NCBI GenBank assembly: GCA_040768745.1
Contig: JAXGMI010000001.1
Location: 1,838,032-1,902,031 of the forward strand
Origin: Desulfomicrobium sp.
GTDB taxonomy: Bacteria > Desulfobacterota > Desulfovibrionia > Desulfovibrionales > Desulfomicrobiaceae
Direction: 5' to 3'
DNA length: 64,000 nt
This document shows positions 52,593-64,000 of the stretch, in pieces. The notes under the pieces were generated by a model. It searched no databases. It was not told the origin of the DNA and was given only the letters and a program-made list of their open reading frames with translations. The position numbers were made by a program, and so were the translations under genes. Every line of letters starts with the position of its first letter. Within the stretch, counting starts at the first letter, position 1.

Positions 52593-52680
52593 GCCCGGGT
52601 GGTGGAACTGGTAGACGCCAGGGATTTAAAATCCCTTGACCTTTATGGTCGTGCGGGTTCAAGTCCCGCCCTGGGCACCA
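52593..52680 (+). tRNA. tRNA-Leu (anticodon TAA)
   Basis: GCCCGGG..TGGTAGAC D-loop, AGGGA-TTTAAAA-TCCCT anticodon arm, long variable arm, GGTTCAAGTCC T-arm, CCA. Confidence 0.95.
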
Positions 52681-52749
52681 ATAAAAACAAGGACTTACCG
52701 AGAAAAACCGATAAGTCCTTTTCTCTTTAGTTCCGCCAAAGCCCTGATT

Positions 52750-52775
52750 TGCCCCACTCCTGCCCCACTTTTTAG
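52750..52775 (+). repeat. Integrase arm-type site (left copy)
   Basis: TGCCCCACTCCTGCCCCACTTTTTAG, identical to 58933-58958. Confidence 0.75.
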
Positions 52776-53589
52776 GCGGCAAGGCACCTTTTTTGCCCCT
52801 ATCGTCCGGACAATCGCGGCGTTTTTTTGCGGCCAGATCCACGCCACCAAACGGCCACCACGGGCATGGATATTTTCACCCGGCCAGGGCAGGAAAGACA
52901 CCTTTTTTCCACCCGGCACCCTTGTCTAAACCTTGTCATTCCGTTTCAGCACTCCACGGCGAAGCGATAGCGGACACCCTTATCTAAACCTTACCACTTT
53001 TCGGCCCACCCTCCCTAAAACCTCCCTATTCCTTGCACCCCTTGGAGAACCTTACTACCCGGCAAGCTCCGGGCGCTGTATCGGCTTCCTGTCGCGCCCC
53101 CGTTGTCTTGCCGAAGCCCGTAACAAGCGGGGCAAAGTTTTTGCCAGTCGTACCGCTGCCGAAAGGACCTTCCGGCAATACTGCACCACGCCGTCATGAC
53201 GCGCCCCCTTCCGGCGCAAGTAGGCAGGTTTTCAGATCCGCCATGAGCGCCCGGCACTGCATGCAGGCTCTCGGGTAGCCCTGCACTCTGACAGGCTGGC
53301 CACGTGTTTGTATTCGGGCAGGAATCCATTCAGCACTGGGTCCAACCAATACTGGCCCGGCAGTAGGTCGAAGGACAGGGGCGTTTCCGCCCCGGCGTCC
53401 TGTTTCGTTGCAACTGCTGTTTTTTTTGGTCGGGTCGGTCGGGTCGGTCGGGTTAGCCCACGGCCCACCTAGTTCTTGGTTGACCCGACTTGCATTTTTC
53501 GTGGTCGGGTCGGGTCGGGTCGGTCGGGTCGGGTTCCACCTGGGCACCGCTGGCCAGCTTCAAAAGGCGGCCAATGTTCAACATGACTG

Positions 53590-55396
53590 GCTCCTTCATC
53601 GTCCGGCATGGTCACGGAATACACGCGCATCCCTTGCCAAGATCCGGAAGCGGCACCCGGACAGTCAGGTTTTTCCCATCGTTTCGATGAAGCAACCCGG
53701 CCCGGTCCAAAGCCTGGCTGCCGTGGTCTGATTCAACCACCCAGCACCGCCTTGAACTGGTCGGAAGTGAAAAGGAACTGGGCTTCACCCGTTCAGGGTC
53801 CGGCGGAATCCGGCCCGATCCAAGATCCTTTCAGGCGTGCCGGGGTCGATATTTTGGAAGCGGCTTGACCTTCAAAGCGAGCAATGAAGGCGCGCACTGT
53901 ATCCACGGCCCGGCGGTCTTCCTTGATCGCCCGTGCTGCCCCGGCCTTCAAGCCATGACTCCAAGCACTGCCGAGCGGCGGCCAGGGCTTCACCTTCGGC
54001 CCACGGCACAAGCCCGAAGTCCACCGCAAGTTCCCCGGCAACCCCGGCCAATGCGAACCGATCAATAACGCGGCGGACCTGTCCGGAAGATCCCGGCGGC
54101 GTCCAAGCGGACACCACGGCGGCAAGATCCTGTGCAAGATTCAACTCCCCACGGCTGCGGGTCAGGACGTCGATATAGGCACCGCTCACGTGCTGCACTG
54201 CGGCACAAGCGGCCTTGATCGCGTCGGAGAACTGCCCCGGCGTGTCATGCCCGTGCAAGTCCTGCCATGCCCCCATGCCCGAGCCTGCGTCCGCTGAAAG
54301 GTCAATAATGCGGACTTGCCCGGCCCGGACCTGCTGCCCATCTTCGCGCAGCTTGTCCGAAAGGGTCATTTCCCATTGGACAGCACCCGCGCATCGCCAA
54401 GCCCGGAGCGCACGCGCTGACCCGTCAACATGCGCCCGGCTCTTCCCCTGGCCATTGCCCAACAAATAGGCGGCTTCCGACACCACCCGCTCCCGAAGCC
54501 TGCCCGATTTCATCCAGGCACAAACAGGCGTCATTGTGTAGGTCGCTGACGCTTCCAGGGCGTTGGCCGTGCTTCGCCATGTACGCACCCCGGAAGGGCA
54601 CCGCCGTGTACGGACCAAGCGGCCTGCATGATCGTGTCTTGCCTGTGGATGAATGGCCCCAAAAATGGAAGCCCCCGGAATCCATCCCGGCCAGATCCGG
54701 CAAAAAGCCGACAAGGCGGCGCTGATCCCCAAACATGAGCAAGCGTTTTTCTTCATGGCCCACGCGCCTATGGTCGCGTTCCAGTCTTCAAGGGTTCCGG
54801 CCCGTGAATGGGTTCGCGGCCAAGCGGTCGCTTGAAGCACAAGGCGTTCTTCGCCCTGGCCAATCACTGCGTCCGGCGGACATAGGCGGACCCATGCCAC
54901 CCCCGCCCGGTCAACGCACCGCGCCCGCGCCTGCACTGACACCGAAGCCAAAAGCTGCCCAAGCAGACCCTTTGCCTTTTGACCCGTCGCACCGCGCCAC
55001 CCACCGCTTGCCAAAGTTTCGCCCGCCAGCTCTGCCGGGTAATTTCGTTCAACATGGCGTAGGCAGCGCCCACCAATGCAACTTTCCGTCTGGATCATGC
55101 CAGCCAATCAAAAGCTCCCCACGCTTCGGAATCGCCGTTTCTGGTCATGGCCTGAAAGTAAATCGGCGCACCCAGCCAGGTTTTTTCTTCGGGCTTTTCC
55201 GGGTCTTCGATGTACCAAAGCCCTTCGGCGTTCATATGGTAGCCGTTGGGCAACTGGACCGACCCGACCCGACTTGACCCGACCGACCCGACTTGCTTGC
55301 GTCGGGTCGATAAAACCCGGGCGTCAACCGTGCCCTGGCCCGACCGACCCGACCGACCTCGACTTGTTTTCGTGCATATTGCAAGGTTTCAGACAT
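53590..55396 (-). pseudogene. DUF927-like replicative helicase, multiply frameshifted (approximate bounds)
   Basis: Fragments GTLEDWNATIG, GGFHFWGHSSTGKT (Walker A), WRSTANALE, AYLLGNGQGKSRA, RRVIDRFAL spread across frames. Confidence 0.75.
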
Positions 55397-56229
55397 AGCG
55401 CTCCCTTGCCGGGGTTCGGCAAGTCCGGCGCTGAATCCTGACTGGATAGTGCGCTGCGCTTCGTGGTCAGGCAGTCCACAAGCGGCGGCGGCCTGCCCAA
55501 GGCGGTCAGGGCTTCTTGATTCTACCAATTCCCCACCGGCCACCAACTGCCCACAAGCAAAGGCGGCTCCGTTCAGGCGGACATTGCGGCCCGTGTTCGG
55601 CCCCATGGCTGCCAATCCTCGACATTCCTTTTCAAGAGCGGCGGCCCCGCAGCAGGTCGATAACGTGGCGCTGGATCGTTGGGCATTGCCTGGGCTGTTC
55701 CGGCCCGGGGCTTCCCTGGCCAGGCGGTCAATCCATGATTGCGGAAGCGGGGCAGGCTGTAGGTGGTTCAGCCATACAAGGCCCGGCTTCGTTCACTGAA
55801 GGCGGGAAGGGATTAACATAGTCCCGGCGCTGCGTGCATATCGATACCAGGGCCAACCTTGCCCGCACTGCATGGAATATCAGCCCCGTCCGATACAGAA
55901 AAGCTGATCGCCACCGCTGCCCGTGCGCTGCCGTAGCGTTTCGGGTAGGCGGCCAAGATCCGCTTCCACCCCACAGGCGGCAATGCCGTCCACCCCGTTT
56001 TTCCGGTCCCGATCAATGACAAGCAAACCGCTTGCTGGTCCGGCTAGTCGGCATCCCGATCCCGGCCACCCCCTGCATGGAAAACAAGGCCCGGATTGCG
56101 TCCGGGTCGGTCGTGGCGTCCTTGAAGCCGTGGGCGGTCGTAATGGGCGCTTGTTGATACCAACCGGAAAGACAGGCTTGCCCTTCGCGCCAAATGGCCA
56201 GGGCTGCGCTTGAGCGCCTGGCCACTCAT
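55392..56229 (-). pseudogene. Bifunctional primase-polymerase (Prim-Pol), frameshifted
   Basis: GKPVFPV and HGFKDATTDPDAIR fragments; C-terminal EAQRTIQSGF.AG..EPR. Confidence 0.7.
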
Positions 56230-56390
56230 AACAACACCCCGGTCAGGATCGCGGCCAGCATCAGCAACTCGGTTTGACGGCCTGTCCATTTCGTGAAACA
56301 TTCGCCAAGAAACGCACCGTTTCACAAGCCCCCTTGCCTATGCCCCGCGGCTGCCCCCCGTGGGGCTTTTTCATTTCCATGGTTTGCCCC

Positions 56391-56634
56391 CTAGCCCCTG
56401 GATTTCCAGACGGTTCAAAAACCAATCGATGAAGGGTTCCCGAAGGTAGCCCGCCTTGGTCCTGCCCACCCTCACCTTGCCTTCCGGCCCTTCGCCCTTG
56501 TTGTCCAAATTGGCCAAGGTCCGCCCGTCAATCATGCCCCCGGTCAACTCCTGACCTGCTGCCGGACGAACACCGCCGGAAGGACGTCAAAAGCCGCGCT
56601 TTCAGTTCGGCCTTCTCAACTGTTCTTTGCTCAT
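56391..56634 (-). pseudogene. Excisionase/AlpA-like DNA-binding protein, frameshifted
   Basis: GRTLANLDNKGEGPEGKVRVGR..Y....IDW pattern; ATG-to-stop span is not a multiple of 3. Confidence 0.5.
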
Positions 56635-56697
56635 AAAGCCCCCTTCACGCTCATGCGTGAAATGATGTGAATGTATAGGGCTGTTATCGTTGATTTA

Positions 56698-57586
56698 TTA
56701 GACATTCTGTAGGTCGGATTTTCGAATAACCGGTAGGATTTCTGGTAGGATTTTCAGATTTTTCGAAGGGCAAACAAAACCGGGTTTCCCGGCTTGATGA
56801 ATCAATCTTTTTTGATGCTTTTTCCTTTTCGGTCTAGGCTTCCCCAAAAGACCGTAGTGGACTCGTTCGGTATAGCTGCTGTTCGGTCGGTCCTTTTCGC
56901 CTGATCGTTTCGCCCCGGCGGCTGCCCCGTGGCTATGCAAAGGGCGGCGTAATTCTGTGATTCGGCCCCATGGCCCTTTGGCGTTCCGAATCATATAGGC
57001 CCTGGCCGCTTCGTCACTAAACTCCGCGCTGTATCAACTGCTCGTTGTATTTCTCCGGCTCGTTGGGCAACGATTCCGGCGGATCAAGCTGCGGAATCCC
57101 TTTTCTGTTGATCGTGGCTCAAGCTGGTCGTGGGGCGGGCGGCGGTTAATGGAGATATCGTCCAGCGCAGGTGAAATGGCGTAGCCTTTTGTCTTGGCCC
57201 ATCCGTCAGCACCGATGGTGCCACCAAGGTTTTCGCTTCGTCCCACGGCCCGATAATCTGTAACTTTCCAGCCAAGTAACTCCCCCGTAACTCTAGAAAT
57301 ATCTTGTCGAGCTTGCAGGTGAGAAGAACGCACTCGTTGAAAATATGCCAGTCGCCTTCAGACAAATGGCCATGATCCTTTCTAAACCAATAAAGCCCAG
57401 TTATGCCGAGCACAACGTCTGGCTCAACCCCAATGATAATACACGTTGCCTGCTGCATCGTCCACGTCGAGCTTCACCCATCTTTCAAAATTGCATGGTG
57501 TTTCAAGTTTGTGATGGTTTCTAAAACTCGTTCGTTCTCCCACGCGTTCATTGAGTGCTGCGCCTGTAGTCGTATAAAAATTTCAT
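56698..57586 (-). pseudogene. Fragmented hypothetical island gene (approximate bounds)
   Basis: Overlapping partial ORFs (57084-57458, 57034-57333, 56698-56994) that appear to continue across frameshifts. Confidence 0.35.
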
Positions 57587-57713
57587 ATCACTGCCCCTTT
57601 GCCCCGCGTATAAAGTTCCAGGGTCAGGCGCTGCCAGCAGTAGTGCGCTTTTCGGCATGGGTTAATTACTCCCAGCCTAGACCCTGGAAAATGTGACAAG
57701 CCGTGACAAAATG

Positions 57714-58928
57714 TTACTTTTTGCCACCCCCGTGGATCTCAATCACCTTGGCGGGTTCGGTCTGCATCATCCCTTCCAAGGCGCTCATTGCCCGGCGGCG
57801 TCCGGCGTCCCCGGAATGCTGATAACGTAGCGCCATGGCGGGCGTCTTCCACCCGGCAAGGTCCATCATATCTCGAAGCGGAACCCCGGACTGTCCGAGA
57901 CGGGTAGCGCCACTGTGCCGCAAGGAATGAAAAACAATTTTGTCCAGCTTGCCCCGGCCTTTATTCAATCCAAGATCATCCACTACGTCGCGGAAGGACT
58001 TTGGCGCTTGCGCATAGGGCTTGCCCTGGCTGGACATAAAAACCCGACCCTGACCCGGCCCCATGCCGCGCAAAAGATCCACCAATGTATCGGAAAGCGG
58101 GATCTCCCGGCTTGTGCCGTTCTTCGTATTCCGGAACAGGGCCTTGCCCATGCCAAGGTCAACGTCCTTCCATTCCAAGTTCGCGGCTTCGGAGAACCGG
58201 CAACATGACAGGGCACAAAACAAGGTCAACCTGTAGGCGTGCTGGTCACGTTTGGCCAGGGCTTCAAGGATCGCTTGCAACTCCTGATTCGAGACAATGC
58301 GGCTTCGGCGGTTACTGTCCGGTTTCAGGGTCGCGCCAATCAGTTTGGCCCGTGGCGGCATATCCGACACCATGCGGCGGGCAAAGGCGTGTTCCAAGAC
58401 AAGGCGAAGGGTCAGGCAGGCATATTGACGGGTCCGTGTTGCAAGCCCCCCGTCCGTCATGGCGGAAAGCAGAAAGTCCCACTGTGTAATCCCTATTTCC
58501 TGAATCTTGATATGTCCCAAAAGCGGGTCAATCCAGTTCTCAAACAAGGACACTTCCCGGCCCCATGATTCCGGTTTTTTCCGCTGCTTGGCCGTGGGCA
58601 GGTAGTCGTTGAAAAAATAGTCGTGCAAGGTCACGGCCTGTGCTGCGTCAAGCTGCTTTTGGCGCTCGGCTTCGGCCTTGGCCTGGGTCCGTTTTTCTTC
58701 CAGGGTAGCAGGGCCTTGCCCAACCCGGTGGGCGTCCTTCAACCTGCCACGCTCGGCAATGGCCCGTTCAAGGTTCCACCCTTCGGAAGCCCAGCCAAGG
58801 GCTTCTTCATGCTGCGCCCCGTTCAGGCGGTAGCGGATAAAGTATTGCCTATCGGGTCCGACACCATGTTTTCTGGTTTCGTGCTCCCTGACTCGGACAC
58901 CCCTTGCAACCGTCTTTGACCCTGCCAT
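57714..58928 (-). CDS. Tyrosine recombinase/integrase (intact)
   Basis: Catalytic R (CRFSE), K (TKNG), HSLRH, AGW, RY; N-terminal arm-binding-like domain. Confidence 0.92.
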   Translation of the reverse strand: MAGSKTVARGVRVREHETRKHGVGPDRQYFIRYRLNGAQHEEALGWASEGWNLERAIAERGRLKDAHRVGQGPATLEEKRTQAKAEAERQKQLDAAQAVTLHDYFFNDYLPTAKQRKKPESWGREVSLFENWIDPLLGHIKIQEIGITQWDFLLSAMTDGGLATRTRQYACLTLRLVLEHAFARRMVSDMPPRAKLIGATLKPDSNRRSRIVSNQELQAILEALAKRDQHAYRLTLFCALSCCRFSEAANLEWKDVDLGMGKALFRNTKNGTSREIPLSDTLVDLLRGMGPGQGRVFMSSQGKPYAQAPKSFRDVVDDLGLNKGRGKLDKIVFHSLRHSGATRLGQSGVPLRDMMDLAGWKTPAMALRYQHSGDAGRRRAMSALEGMMQTEPAKVIEIHGGGKK

Positions 58929-58932
58929 TTTC

Positions 58933-58973
58933 TGCCCCACTCCTGCCCCACTTTTTAGCGTTAAAGTGGGGCA
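58933..58973 (+). repeat. Integrase arm-type sites (right copy plus inverted unit)
   Basis: 26-bp copy at 58933-58958 and inverted AAAGTGGGGCA at 58963-58973, directly upstream of the int ATG. Confidence 0.75.
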
Positions 58974-59069
58974 AATTATGTGAAAGTATGTGAAGGCAAG
59001 ATAGGCATAACTTACTGATAGGTCAATGCTTTTGTGACTTTTAGTGAAAGGGCGTGAAGGCATCGAACC

Positions 59070-59127
59070 GGATTTAAAATCCCTTGTCCTTCGGGGCGTG
59101 CGGGTTCAAGTCCCGCCCTGGGCACCA
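59070..59127 (+). repeat. att site: displaced 3' half of tRNA-Leu
   Basis: GGATTTAAAATCCCTTG...CGTGCGGGTTCAAGTCCCGCCCTGGGCACCA, differing from the tRNA only in the variable arm. Confidence 0.92.
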
Positions 59128-59387
59128 TTAAAATCAAGGACTTACTGCACAAATTGCGGCAAGTCCTTTTTCATTTGAAAATCAGAAAAGGCTTTTTGTC
59201 CCCCATTTGTCCCCCAAAAAAATCGACGAACTCGTCTTGGAACTCTTTGCCTTGCTCGGCGGCACACACGTCGGTTTAAATGTCAAACAGCATCGAATAA
59301 TGACCCACGATCGGCGTCCAATTCTGACCCCCTCCGGGCGTGTCTGTAAGCATCCGGCCAGAGTGCTGTGCGATGACCGCAGCAGCG

Positions 59388-60125
59388 TCACTGGACGGAT
59401 GTCCTTTGCCTCAGCCTCCAGCTCTCGTTTCCTGTCTCGATGATCTCGCAGTGATGGGTGACGCGGTCCAGCAGCGCCGTCGTCATCTTGGCGTCCCCGA
59501 AGACCTGTGACCATTCGCCAAAGCTCAGGTTGGTGGTGATCATCACCGACGTCTGCTCGTAAAGCTTTGACAGCAGATGGAAGAGCAGTTGCCCGCTGGA
59601 CCTGGAGAACGGCAGGTAGCCAAGCTCGTCCAGGATGATCAGATCGAAGCGTGCAAGGGTGTCGGCTAGGCGCCCGGCCTTGCCCTCAGCCTTCTCCCGC
59701 TCAAGCTTGTTGACCAGGTCCAGTAGGTTGAAGAAGCGGACCCGTGCCCCGTTGCGGATGCACTGGGTGCCGATGGCGACGCTCAGGTGCGTCTTGCCGG
59801 TCCCCGTGCCGCCGACGAAGACGACGTTTGTCCGCGCCTCCATGAAGCCGCCCTGACACAGCGTTTTGATCCTGTCCTCGCTCACCGATGAGGACGGGAA
59901 GTCGAAGCCCTCCAGATCCTTCATCACGGGAAACTTGGCGATTCCCAGTCTGTACCGGATGCTGCGCATGTGGCGCTCGGCCTTCTCCGCCCGGAGTAGC
60001 GCGAATAGGATCTTCTCCGGTGTCGAGCCGGTTCTGCGACCTTGCTCAAGCAATTCGTCATAGGCGCTGTGAGCCCCGTTCAGCCCCAGTTCCTTGAGCA
60101 TGCCCAACACGTCATTGCGCAGCAT
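59388..60125 (-). CDS. istB: IS21 helper ATPase
   Basis: [29 protein letters not shown]. Confidence 0.95.
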
Positions 60126-61623
60126 GTGCACCCCGCAGGAGACGGTCGTAGCGACCGCAGTCGGCAACAGGCATGCATCCGAGTTCCAGGCGCGAGGGGA
60201 TGCTGACCACCGGTGCGGGCTCGTCATCCTGCTGACGGTTGAGGATACTCAGAACAGCATCCTTGCTCACGGTGCGCTGGTTCAGCGCCATCCGGCAGGC
60301 CTCTGCGACGACCTCGAGGCCATGACTGGGGACGGCTGTAAGAATCCCGGCGAACTGACGATCCCAGTCGTCGTAACGTCGCAAGACCTCTCGAACCCGC
60401 TCGATGGCCTCGGGCAGTGCCCACGCCGTAAACGGGGCACCGTTGCGCAGCGCCCCTGGCTTGCGGTCAAGCAGAGGAACGTAGTGCCAGGGATCGTAGA
60501 CGGTCTTGTCGCGGCCGAACTCCCGCTTGTGCTCGGCAATCAGCTTGCCGCCGTCCACGACCTTGAGCCTTCCCGCGTAAGCCTTGACCTGTACGACCTT
60601 GCCGGCCGCCTCGCACGGCACGCTGTAGCGGTTGCGGTCGAAGTGCACCAGACAGGTCGAAGAAACTCGGCAATGCTCCAGGCGGTAGCCATCGAACTCC
60701 TTGGGTGCCCGGATCAATATCTCACGCTCTGCTTCAAAGACTTCCCAGATCGTCTTGTCACGCAGTTCCGGATGCTGTTGGCTCTTGGCCCAGCCCACGG
60801 CTCGCTCAAGCAGGTATTCGTTGAGTTCTTCAATGCTGGCGAACTTCGTGCGACCCGCCAGAAAGCGTTTGCGCATGAGCCCGACCGAGTTCTCTACCTG
60901 CCCCTTTTCCCAGCCGGCCGCAGGCGTGCACATGATCGGCTCGACGAGGTAATGGGCGCACAACTCTTCAAAACGCGGGTTGAGTTCCCGGAGCTTGCCG
61001 CGCAGCACTTTCGACACGGCTGTGGTCATGTTGTCATAGATTCCGCGACAGCATGCGCCACCAATGAAGTCGAAGGCGCGATTGTGGGCCTCGAAGACCA
61101 TCTCCATGGTCTCGCGGGGAAAGCCCTGGCAGAAGAGAATGCGGCTATGGCACAGGCGCATGTGCGACACCTTGACGGCCATGGGCAGCCCGCCGATCTC
61201 CAGTTGCTCATGGCTCCAGTCAAACTGGTAGGCCTTGCCTGGCGCAAATTCCAGAGGCACGTAGGCATCCGGTGCCTTGAGCCCCGCCTCCTCCCGCCAA
61301 CGCCGTATGAACCGTCTCACGGCGTCGTAGCCACCCTCGTAGCCCTGTCCCTGAAGCTGCTCGAACAGGACCTTCGCCGTACGCCGGTACTTCTTGGGCT
61401 GCTTGGCGTCGTGCTCCAATTGCTCAACGACCCAGTCCGTGAAACCGTCCATCTTCGGCATGGGCTGGACCGTGCGATGGTATTCAAACCTGGTCGCGTC
61501 GGACCTGAGGACCTTGCGGACCGTGTTCCGGCTCAGATGGAAGTCTTTGACTATCTGCCCAATCGTCTTGCCGTCTCGGCCATGGGCCAGCTTGATCTTG
61601 CGTATCGTTTCCACCGTCAGCAT
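60112..61623 (-). CDS. istA: IS21 DDE transposase
   Basis: SRNTVRK HTH, QFDW, YDN, EKGQVE, YSVP. Confidence 0.95.
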
Positions 61624-61740
61624 CTCCTCGTCTTCCCTCCATGGCGTTCAGTCGAACGACCTTGAAGGGCTTGCCGGAGACGGTCAATTTTCGATGCCGA
61701 TTACTGCGAGAGGTGGGTCATTATTCCATGCCGATTCACA

Positions 61741-62102
61741 CTGGGATTATGCCCCGGCGGTGAAAGCAAAGGTACAGTGGGCATCTAAATCGGATATAGC
61801 GTAACGTATTGGTGGTAAAAGCACCCGACAGCGGGCGGCCAGAAATGGCACGTGCTGTTTTCGACGAATCGGTGATGGAATCTGAGGCGCATGCTTCAGA
61901 ACACAGAGGCGTGGTAGTAATCCCCCGAAAGGGCAACGGATGCGTCCGAACTCATGTCAATAGCATGGGGCACTTGAAGCAGTTGGCAACTGTTGAAAGG
62001 TAAGCGAAGGACATCTGAGCGCATGAAAAGTGCGCTGGACGAAGCACGTTAGGTCCGCGTGGCAAGCGGCAATATATGACAAATTCATCCATGGCGATGA
62101 CC
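61741..62102 (+). ncRNA. Candidate large structured ncRNA (3' portion; 5' side abuts IS21)
   Basis: About ten consecutive hairpins with G-U pairs and two GAAA tetraloops, no credible ORF, ends at a strong terminator. Confidence 0.5.
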
Positions 62103-62136
62103 AATAAAAAAGGCTGCAATTGCAGCCTTTTTTATT
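62103..62136. terminator. Bidirectional intrinsic terminator
   Basis: Perfect palindrome AATAAAAAAGGCTGCAATTGCAGCCTTTTTTATT. Confidence 0.85.
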
Positions 62137-62153
62137 TCAACATCCTAGAAATA

Positions 62154-62426
62154 TTAGGATAGTGGCAGTCGGTACTGCTTCGCTTCTGGAACTGATGAGT
62201 CTTTTTGGGACTCCTTGTTAAGTTTCTCTCGCCTTTTTTTCTCAGCGTCGATCTCAGTCAAAGCTTGCCTGCATGATTTCAAAATCAGCCGTGCAACTTC
62301 TTCATTCAGCCCAAATTTCCAGCCCAATCGCTCAGATTCTGCCCTAACTTTTTCAAATTCCTGCGCGACGTGGCCAGGAACCCTGAATCGTACCGTTTCA
62401 TTTGGTTCAATTTTTATTAAGAACAT
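62154..62426 (-). CDS. Small putative DNA-binding/repressor protein (RHH-like)
   Basis: SD GGAGG; ETVRFRVP beta-strand then helices; divergent from xis-int. Confidence 0.6.
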   Translation of the reverse strand: MFLIKIEPNETVRFRVPGHVAQEFEKVRAESERLGWKFGLNEEVARLILKSCRQALTEIDAEKKRREKLNKESQKDSSVPEAKQYRLPLS

Positions 62427-62550
62427 AATGTTACCTCCATATATATAATGTAATGGAGGGGAATTTTTTTTTTTACCTCCTGATCTTTTTTTTCATCAAA
62501 GTTGAAAAAAAAAATCTTTTCCTCCGGAGGAAGGCAGGAGGTAAAAATGA

Positions 62551-62802
62551 ATGTGTACTGGATCTTCGAAAAAATACTGTTCGACAGAAGAAGCAATGAA
62601 GCGGCTCGAATGCTCTAAAAGTTTTTTATACAATAAAAAAAATCAAGCTATGCTTGGAGCGACAAAGTTGGGACGCATTGTCAAGTGGGATATCGAATGT
62701 ATCGATAGTTATCTAAAACAAAATAAGGTCGTCTTTGTATCACCAGAAAAGCAGAGTAAAAAATCTAATAAAAAGATTGCAAGCAAGCATGATTTATGGT
62801 AG
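62551..62802 (+). CDS. Excisionase-like HTH protein
   Basis: STEEAMKRLECSKSFLY...ATKLGRIVKW...IDSYL; directly upstream of integrase. Confidence 0.75.
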   Translation: MCTGSSKKYCSTEEAMKRLECSKSFLYNKKNQAMLGATKLGRIVKWDIECIDSYLKQNKVVFVSPEKQSKKSNKKIASKHDLW

Positions 62803-62845
62803 ATAATAGTAATAGGCGACCTCCGTATGCATGGAGGAATTAACA

Positions 62846-63916
62846 ATGCCCGGAAAACATGGTAAACGCTGGCGCGGAGAAGTCCGTAAGTATGGTCAGC
62901 GAAAGACAAAGGTCTTTGACAAACGAAAAGATGCCCTGGAATGGGAAATATTGACTGAAAAGCGCATCATCGAGGCTCATCAGCAGGAACAGAAGCTCAT
63001 GGTCAAGGATCCGGACGGCTTGCTGTTCGGCCCCTCTTATGAGGAGTATCTTGATGAGGTCAAATCGACAATGTGTGAGAAGACGTACAAGGAAAAGGTC
63101 GCGGTAGGGAAAAAGTTCATTTCCTTTGTCGGCGGACCAAGCATGCTGATTCGTGAACTCATGCGGGTTCACGTTAAACAGTATATGAACATGGAAGCCA
63201 AAACGCGATCAGGCAATGCTGTGAACAAAGACAGAAAAAATCTGCTCGCTTTTTGGAATTGGCTCATGCAGACTTATGAACTGGATTTGCGAAATCCTTT
63301 CAACGTCAAAAAGAAGCCGGAAGTGCGTCATCCCCGGTACGTCCCTCCTTTTAACGATTTCCAAAAAGTTGTTGAGCAGGCTGCGCCTGGACAGGACCGT
63401 ATTCTGCTACAGGTATACTTTCTAACTGCCGCCCGAAAAAGTGAGATCGTCAAGCTGGCATGGGAGCATGTCAACTTCGAACTTATGCAGATTGGGTTGA
63501 TGACTCGAAAGCGAGAAAACGGGAATTATGAGTTGGATTGGCAGGCAATGAGTTCAAATCTGGCGACAGAACTGATGAAACAGAAATTGGTTACAGGAAG
63601 AGGCGAGCATGTGTTCGTCAATCCCCGCAAAGGTCGAGGTTTTCTTGATCGTCGTAATTGGTTGCGGAATCTGTGCGATGCTGCCGGGGTGAAACGGTTT
63701 GGCTTTCACGGTATCCGGCATCTTGCCGCACATATCGCGATTCTTACGGAATCAATGACTTTGCCGGACATTCAGCACCTCCTTCGGCACGAGTCAATTT
63801 TGACAACCCAGACGTATGTCAAACAGGTCCGGAAGGGGGCCAAGGCTTCAGAGGTCCTGGGAGACTATTTGAAAACTGCCACATGGCGCTGCCACATGGC
63901 GGTGAATGAGGGCTAG
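62846..63916 (+). CDS. Tyrosine integrase
   Basis: TAARKSE, TRK, HGIRH, LRH, TY catalytic set; SD GGAGG; adjacent to a tRNA 3' end. Confidence 0.92.
   Translation: MPGKHGKRWRGEVRKYGQRKTKVFDKRKDALEWEILTEKRIIEAHQQEQKLMVKDPDGLLFGPSYEEYLDEVKSTMCEKTYKEKVAVGKKFISFVGGPSMLIRELMRVHVKQYMNMEAKTRSGNAVNKDRKNLLAFWNWLMQTYELDLRNPFNVKKKPEVRHPRYVPPFNDFQKVVEQAAPGQDRILLQVYFLTAARKSEIVKLAWEHVNFELMQIGLMTRKRENGNYELDWQAMSSNLATELMKQKLVTGRGEHVFVNPRKGRGFLDRRNWLRNLCDAAGVKRFGFHGIRHLAAHIAILTESMTLPDIQHLLRHESILTTQTYVKQVRKGAKASEVLGDYLKTATWRCHMAVNEG
63876..63901 (+). repeat. Tandem 13-bp repeat, probable arm-type site
   Basis: CTGCCACATGGCG x2, ~65 bp from the tRNA end. Confidence 0.6.
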
Positions 63917-63921
63917 GAAAG

Positions 63922-63956
63922 AAAAAAGGGATTTCAGTAACACACTGAAATCCCTT
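63922..63956 (-). terminator. Terminator-like hairpin downstream of the tRNA
   Basis: AAGGGATTTCAGT-N4-ACTGAAATCCCTT with A-run on the left (U-tract on minus strand). Confidence 0.7.
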
Positions 63957-63965
63957 GCTTTCTAA

Positions 63966-64000
63966 TGGCGGGGCCGATGGGACTCGAACCCACGGCCTCC
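63966..64000 (-). tRNA. tRNA 3' portion, probably tRNA-Asp (truncated by window; may be an att copy)
   Basis: Minus strand GGAGGCCGTGGGTTCGAGTCCCATCGGCCCCGCCA; anticodon lies outside the window. Confidence 0.75.

Follow-up and report, generated by a model that had tools for sequence, protein, structure and literature searches.

Circularly permuted (CP) group II ribozymes are listed as 'permuted-group-II' in the supplement of Roth, Weinberg, Vanderschuren, Murdock and Breaker (2021, iScience, PMC8637638). According to that published description they are ORF-free RNAs in which 5′ hairpins are followed by D5, D6, the 3′ splice site, a linker, the 5′ splice site, D1, D2, a purine-rich J2/3, D3 and the 3′ portion of D4. 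The 5′ hairpins (P1, P2 / split D4) are specific to the class, in which the 5′ region also pairs with the 3′ end. Cryo-EM work on the CP ribozymes Cte 1 and Gdi-1 is presented in bioRxiv 10.64898/2025.12.30.696962 and in NAR 2026 (PMC13717195), and the split D4 and the omega-omega′ concept used below are taken from the latter. Carriage of such RNAs on islands is not new, since the gene-context table in the supplement of PMC8637638 already shows the chromosomal copy of T. thermophilus with genes for an integrase and an excisionase next to it; an integrase gene is likewise given there beside env-1.

The window analysed here is a 64,000-nt stretch of Desulfomicrobium DNA, and positions 61741-62136 on its plus strand are a real structured RNA, with the coordinates and strand given in the original prediction. 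The stretch is neither a new RNA class nor a complete gene. With a probability that we put at about 0.92, it is the 3′ ~45% (~390 nt) of a CP group II ribozyme gene, present here as a dead remnant (Table 1). The original prediction had left it as an unassigned ncRNA comparable to GOLLD and ROOL, which are large, ornate RNAs found in mobile elements near tRNAs. This comparison has to be given up. The homologues have the layout of a CP group II ribozyme, with domain V upstream in the part that is missing from the window; they contain group II catalytic domains instead, and neither the window nor any full-length relative was hit by the Rfam models of GOLLD and ROOL.

Table 1. Features of the RNA remnant, its locus and the partner gene of an intact relative (positions are those of the window unless another contig is named).
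Feature	Position	Strand	Remarks
3′ end of domain I	61741..61873	+	hairpins 61811-61825 and 61828-61858
D1 closing stem, 3′ strand UCGGU	61869-61873	+	5′ partner lost in the window
Domain II hairpin	61881..61900	+	named by its position before the purine-rich J2/3, as described in Roth 2021 (PMC8637638)
J2/3 linker, with ACAGAG	61901..61907	+	named by its position between D2 and D3
Domain III, multi-branched	61908..62050	+	named by position and published descriptions
3′ portion of split domain IV	62051..62102	+	two hairpins and a pairing strand
Intrinsic terminator, bidirectional	62103-62136	both	perfect 17+17-nt palindrome flanked by A and T runs
IS21-family insertion sequence	59281..61740	-	adjoins and truncates the RNA gene
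istA	60112-61623	-	Pfam Mu-transpos_C_2 and rve
istB	59388-60227	-	inside IS21
90-aa ORF, convergent with the RNA, island backbone	62154..62426	-	no Pfam family
Excisionase-like HTH gene	62551..62802	+	Pfam HTH_17, E 0.0041 (below curated cut-off); just before the integrase gene
Tyrosine integrase of the island	62831..63916	+	Pfam Phage_integrase, E 2.7e-14
tRNA, 3′ part, adjoining the integrase	63940-64000	-	cut by the contig end
tRNA-Leu(taa) island	52593-59145		6.4 kb; att repeats 52626-52698 / 59073-59145, 73 nt, 82% identical
Integrase of the tRNA-Leu(taa) island	57714-59063	-	
int-alpA RNA in the tRNA-Leu(taa) island	57602-57687	-	RF02996, 37.9 bits
Partner protein of G013	L047 11635-12708	divergent	357 aa, upstream of the intact RNA

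Homologues were collected in two ways. A search of the genomes of 60 relatives found one genome, G013, that is 72% identical over the whole stretch from the IS boundary on, and a partial match in a second, G039. A pattern of three motifs, which are invariant by ascertainment, yielded 10 loci in species genomes and another 21 in metagenomes. The hit in a Micavibrio locus (L017) arose by chance; it is not homologous and was kept out of all alignments. Collapsing identical rows left 22 homologues and the window. The RNAalifold consensus of these 23 sequences has 71 pairs, 45 of them with compensatory changes, in agreement with the claim that a large structured RNA is selected on the plus strand at the RNA level. 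Across the alignment, 96.6% of pair cells are paired, a value that drops to 36-42% when the partners are slid by 1-3 columns, and none of 500 shuffles reaches the observed values. The window itself forms 66 of the 71 consensus pairs and keeps all invariant positions.

Seven of the ten local stems originally proposed, together with the terminator, are found in the consensus with compensatory changes. The helices shared in this way are 61811-14/61822-25, 61828-39/61848-58, 61881-87/61894-900, 61924-26/61931-33, 61951-56/61964-69, 61983-86/61994-97 and 62018-21/62033-36. The remaining stems are not in the consensus: ATGCCC/GGGCAT is absent from it, GGAC/GTCC conflicts with a supported long-range helix, and CCGC/GCGG (62055-69) and TCATC/GATGA (62085-100) do recur, but only in the window's own subgroup. 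Three long-range covarying helices, 61908-18/62039-50, 61937-47/62009-17 and 61973-74/61998-99, had been missed, and they make 61908-62050 one multi-branched domain. Compensatory changes occur in 2 of 4 pairs of helix 2 (61811-61825), 6 of 10 pairs of helix 3 (61828-61858), 8 of 10 pairs of helix 4 (61881-61900; 95.6% of cells paired) and 24 of 38 pairs of helices 5-11 (61908-62050; 84.8-100% paired). RNAalifold further pairs 61783-86 with 62051-54 (93.5% paired, 2 of 4 pairs compensatory).

Two candidate contacts were dropped. An EBS1-IBS1 pairing of CAUCUAA (61782-61788) with the end of the linker forms at only 4-7 of 7 positions and has no consistent covariation; for a kissing contact of the D2 loop, the GGCUA of one relative (L015) sits in the D2 stem, not in the loop.

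The view of the stretch as almost fully tiled by stems is real because covariation, not energy, supports the stems. The folding energy gives z = -2.76 with the terminator and z = -0.31 without it, where 34 of 100 shuffles fold equally well, and the minus strand gives z = +0.85; folding better than shuffles, proposed as a check, did not come out as expected. The absence of a credible ORF is borne out. The frame 61809-62003 (64 aa) contains at least one stop in 22 of 22 homologues, segment lengths differ by non-multiples of three, and nothing in Pfam matches it. Rfam matched no family to the stretch: at E <= 10 the sole hit inside 61741-62070 is a chance match at its edge (scr4677, 61736-61760, minus strand, 25 nt, 9.7 bits, E 5.7), and beyond 62070 there is terminator-type noise only. 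No match for the stretch was returned by blastn against plasmid and phage collections.

ACAGAG is invariant in 23 of 23 sequences and belonged to the search pattern, so that its invariance carries ascertainment. The basal stem of D3 has an internal loop, and hairpin 61924-33 lies inside the domain. The inner stem encloses hairpins 61951-69 and 61973-99, and hairpin 62018-36 follows. A covariance model of D3 (R1), made from this clade, scores 141.9 bits on the window, and the base of the domain is one that we take to resemble its counterpart in canonical group II introns. In the D4 tail the hairpins 62055-62069 and 62085-62100 carry the loops GUGGCAA and CAUGGC, respectively, and the counterpart of strand 62066-62090 in the relatives is complementary to a segment upstream of D5. 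The terminator directly after the stems is as perfect as had been claimed. It is common to the RNA and the convergent 90-aa ORF, and the homologues have a terminator hairpin at the equivalent place (helix 12 of the consensus).

The suspicion that IS21 had cut the 5′ part is confirmed by the relatives, whose conserved RNA extends ~590 nt past 61740/61741 in alignments that include G013 and G039. In this 5′ part lie D5-D6, the 3′ splice site, a linker, the 5′ splice site GUGCG and the greater part of D1, preceded in most of the relatives folded by two hairpins. Of 8 loci scanned, 7 have a match to the Rfam model Intron_gpII (RF00029, covering D5-D6; gathering score 40) in the upstream part and on the same strand, with 39.6 and 40.6 bits in G013/G039 and 49.7, 47.4, 45.5, 43.5 and 43.1 bits in five further relatives. 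The locus with no RF00029 hit, L035, is itself IS-disrupted. A full-length alignment was made from 20 relatives, leaving out L021, L026, L030 and L038 (contig ends) and L035. In this alignment, D5 carries the AGC triad together with a two-nucleotide bulge and a loop reading GAAA; in D6 an A is bulged out six nucleotides ahead of ...CAU, and in 20 of 20 the CAU is followed by a 14-34-nt linker and then by GUGCG. D5, D6 and the D1 closing stem are together 99.8% paired, with 8 of 25 pairs compensatory, and pairing falls to 22-40% with the partners slid. The closing stem (columns 355-359 / 834-838) joins, by 5 bp, the bases right after GUGCG to UCAGG-type bases ~480 nt downstream; 99% of its cells are paired and 2 of its 5 pairs are compensatory.

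Conserved sequence is unbroken from D5 to the terminator in the full-length relatives, and the total RNA length is ~830-900 nt. Among nine relatives that were folded, most have two adjacent hairpins upstream of D5, as read from the dot-brackets. Their loops are alike, UAGCC in the main group and UGCCA in the window's group, and the complementary loops UGGCUA / UGGCA occur in D3 or the 3′ tail. The complementarity between the 5′ and 3′ ends amounts to ~15 bp in G013 and 9 bp in L010/L015. The register is not the same in all subgroups. No ORF is conserved on the RNA strand in the ORF lists of L003 and L010. Downstream of D3 there is no D5 in any relative scanned, and each RNA ends in a terminator.

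These observations bear directly on two other ways of reading the stretch. It is very improbable that we are dealing with a complete and independent ncRNA from a new family, whose start just happens to adjoin IS21. The strong covariation, the possession of its own terminator and the failure of any Rfam family to match 61741-62100 even at E <= 10 would all suit such an RNA, but the conserved covarying RNA of the relatives runs ~590 nt upstream and includes D5-D6, one stem with its 3′ strand in the window has the partner strand upstream in the relatives, and an environmental allele of identical sequence runs on at the point where IS21 sits in the window. Next to no credence can be given to a fragment (D1-D4) of an ordinary, non-permuted group II intron, with the upstream D5-D6 of the relatives belonging to a neighbouring intron. 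Every relative ends in a terminator without a downstream D5, and since only ~130-190 nt, holding two hairpins, lie upstream of D5, there is no room for a D1-D4 there. The segments upstream of D5 are moreover complementary to the 3′ tail, D4 has no ORF, and the 3′ and 5′ splice sites are only 14-34 nt apart. The points in favour of an ordinary intron are the GUGCG start and the Rfam D5-D6 hits, which look canonical, and the D3 model, which does not relate the clade to published CP members.

Taken as a CP ribozyme gene, the window copy is broken by IS21 at 61740/61741, with everything 5′ of that point of the RNA gone. Missing are the pair of 5′ hairpins, D5 and D6, both splice sites and ~330 nt of D1, as well as the RT-like gene that neighbours the RNA. 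A fragment that has no D5, D6 or splice sites and little of D1 cannot be a ribozyme, and it has most likely lost its function. Nor is the missing half found elsewhere in its own genome, which is 99.99% complete. The original statement that the stretch has no domain V can be widened, as neither the window nor the genome has an RF00029 hit at E <= 1, control genomes being positive in the same search. The same genome has no match to the 5′ half of the G013 RNA, no RT-like partner gene with the query used, and no other copy of the complement of 62066-62090 at <= 3 mismatches.

The 28-nt inverted repeats of IS21 (59281-59308 / 61713-61740) are 86% complementary. The structured stretch begins at 61741, the first base past IS21, and thus exactly at the IS end, since the inverted repeat runs 61713-61740. 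Relatives carry IS ends that match up to window 61740/41 (query base 41-42). The genome has one full copy of IS21 and one 119-nt fragment, and no target-site duplication is visible in the flanks. A single full IS21 without target duplication implies that the insertion was accompanied or followed by loss of adjacent DNA; the 5′ half may have been removed by an adjacent deletion or by a rearrangement.

The truncation looks recent. A metatranscriptome run (X6, the only RNA library in which the stretch was covered) contains a 418-nt contig that is identical to 61741-62046 (306 nt), continues for 95 nt further upstream with sequence resembling the intact D1 of G013, not IS21, and ends at 62046 in adapter-like letters; as an assembled contig it cannot prove transcription or transcript ends. 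It is the uninterrupted upstream continuation of this identical allele that makes the truncation appear recent, and a recent truncation accounts for the intact helices of the remnant. The retention of 66 of 71 pairs fits such an event, and retained use is also compatible with it. The contigs from four sequencing runs either end at 61740 or begin at 61741, in the latter case preceded by sequence that is not IS, and none bridges the IS21/RNA junction. Those of X1 and X2 stop at 61740. The shares of 0.2-0.35 in most runs represent the IS21 part only, and for this reason no claim on habitat or expression is made from those runs.

There is a very small chance that the remnant is still used, for example by acting in trans as a D1-D3 scaffold, or as a stable, structured sRNA with transcription from the end of IS21. 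Besides the pairs, all invariant positions and the terminator are kept, and bioRxiv 10.64898/2025.12.30.696962 calls D1-D3 a scaffold and has a discussion heading on 'trans-splicing' for the CP intron. However, such a scaffold would find no D5-D6 anywhere in a 99.99%-complete genome, and D1 is mostly missing, the 5′ splice site included. Recency explains the intactness, the uninterrupted allele being 100% identical over the 306 nt, and none of the four runs showed transcription across the junction of the window itself. We therefore keep to a dead remnant of a CP ribozyme gene. The 'ornate ncRNA' of the window is not worth pursuing as a new RNA, because it is explained as a broken ribozyme copy.

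By analogy with the published CP ribozymes, an intact relative would be transcribed as one RNA of ~830-900 nt whose 5′ and 3′ ends pair. D5/D6 would dock onto the D1-D3 scaffold, and the branch adenosine of D6 would attack the downstream GUGCG 5′ splice site. The freed 3′-OH would then attack the upstream 3′ splice site. The predicted products of this back-splicing are a 14-34-nt RNA circle and a branched RNA.

The relatives share with CP ribozymes the location of D5-D6 5′ of D1-D3 on one RNA and the reversed order of the 3′ splice site (AY) and the 5′ splice site (GUGYG-like) across a short linker; the window itself has neither D5-D6 nor the splice sites. They also share the lack of an internal ORF or IEP gene, the length of ~830-900 nt and residence in mobile DNA. 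The complementarity of their ends and a nearby partner protein gene that is not annotated as an RT may be further parallels. With canonical group II introns the relatives have in common the AGC triad, bulge and GAAA of D5, the bulged A of D6, GUGCG and the purine-rich J2/3. They differ from these introns in domain order, which is permuted with the splice sites facing each other across 14-34 nt, in having no intron-encoded protein in D4, and in ending in a terminator instead of a 3′ exon.

Several features set the clade apart from the published CP members. The 5′ splice site reads GGGCG in pTT8, Gdi-1 and Pna-1, whereas it is GUGCG in the window's clade. The published D5 is more divergent, and pTT8 has no RF00029 hit at E <= 0.1, while the D5 of this clade scores on the canonical Rfam model. 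The D3 model R1 has no significant hit in pTT8, pGDIPal5I or pPNAP05 (the best, in the pTT8 RNA, has 5.3 bits, E 1.5), which is weak evidence against homology because the model is narrow, its effective sequence number being 1.47. The Rfam models of group II D1-D4 find nothing at E <= 1 in the full-length relatives. AcpG of CP ribozymes is ~260 aa long, whereas the partner protein of the window's clade has ~350 aa, and a comparison of the latter with AcpG of pTT8 gave no significant similarity (BLASTP E 0.29, hhalign probability 0.2%). Membership in the class rests on architecture, since neither the D3 model nor AcpG provides sequence homology to validated members.

The clade is absent from the taxa in the PMC8637638 supplement, and 'Desulfo' does not occur in its four supplementary files. 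Between the clade and the published Thermus, Gluconacetobacter and Polaromonas members there is no cross-detection. The clade is either an unlisted branch of the CP class or a separately permuted lineage. We regard it as possible, if rather unlikely, that it is a separate permuted lineage, marked by a canonical-looking D5, GUGCG and predicted circles of 14-34 nt, and carried as cargo by tyrosine-integrase islands that target tRNAs, together with a protein of ~350 aa that has the shape of a group II RT but decayed catalytic motifs. If so, permutation would have arisen more than once, or the class would be much broader than listed; in a broader class, ribozyme and protein might serve the mobile element as an RNA-protein unit.

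A divergent ORF of ~350 aa, or its N-terminal part at cut loci, lies upstream of the RNA in 9 distinct loci (L036 duplicates L032). The protein matches no Pfam family, and none of its 15 database relatives is named. An AlphaFold model (pLDDT 86.2, pTM 0.80) best matches RT/maturases of group II introns, namely 8fli_B (E 2.8e-6, TM 0.58), 6me0_C and the GsI-IIC RT. The putative YxDD position, taken from the beta-hairpin of the model and not from a structural alignment, reads WWDE, MWNE, MWHE or LWSE in the family, and the candidate motif-A aspartate is N in the G013 protein. Given these degenerate catalytic motifs, the modelled protein is likely polymerase-dead and maturase-like. The relatives pair a CP RNA with a protein that is predicted to fold like an intron RT/maturase.

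The window RNA sits in an integrative element, as the original prediction had it, with an integrase, an excisionase-like gene (HTH_17) and, where the window ends, a tRNA. A tyrosine integrase gene is near the RNA in the four loci with enough flank (window, G013, L024 and L032/L036), and a tRNA adjoins the RNA island in the window and in G013. The window integrase shares 39% identity with the one next to tRNA-Asp in the island of G013, which has the intact RNA, and 35% with the one downstream of the RNA in L032. The G013 island has two integrases, HipA, a CI-like repressor and KfrA, and a type I restriction system is nearby. The closest relatives, L024 and L032/L036, have the downstream layout of the window, a convergent small ORF and then an integrase, and in L024 and L032 D5-D6 and the upstream RT-like gene are still present. 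The 90-aa ORF matches no Pfam family; ORFs that are 44-46% identical to it occupy the same convergent position in L024 and L032/L036. A likeness by eye to a small ORF at L010:3264-3596 was unsupported by BLASTP at 1e-3.

Out of 150 other genomes from the order, the D3 covariance model detected the RNA in 2, a patchy spread that fits mobile cargo. The records of the clade are Desulfovibrio-type and other MAGs, and with these relatives the range of CP group II ribozymes would come to include Desulfovibrio-type and other uncultured bacteria outside the original taxon list. Recurrent island carriage and repeated IS damage, in the window and in L035, are small clues that the RNA is cargo dispensable to the host.

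G039 has two copies of the RNA, on contigs C3 and C10, to which the D3 model gives 171 and 162 bits. The damaged copy in L035 (1-3117) has IS3-type ORFs (rve, HTH_Tnp_1) in place of the 5′ half, and fragments of IS21 IstB and IstA downstream of the RNA. A TerB_N/TerB/TerB_C gene (804 aa) follows directly downstream on the same strand in L021, L028, L039 and L040. Next to it in L021 (558-3321), the only one of the four with enough flank, is a BrxC/D-like ATPase gene; these genes may represent a defence-type module linked to the RNA. In L014 and L015 an enolase gene is found downstream of the RNA.

Between the 90-aa ORF and the excisionase-like gene of the window, 62441-62532 contains long palindromic A/T runs, in which Rfam returned only sub-threshold noise; the island may have a divergent promoter/operator region here. 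On the other side, a separate island in tRNA-Leu(taa) has its right end 135 nt to the left of IS21. Within this second island, short direct repeats of the GGTCGGGTCGG type, and their complement, form clusters at 53420-53532 and 55257-55363.
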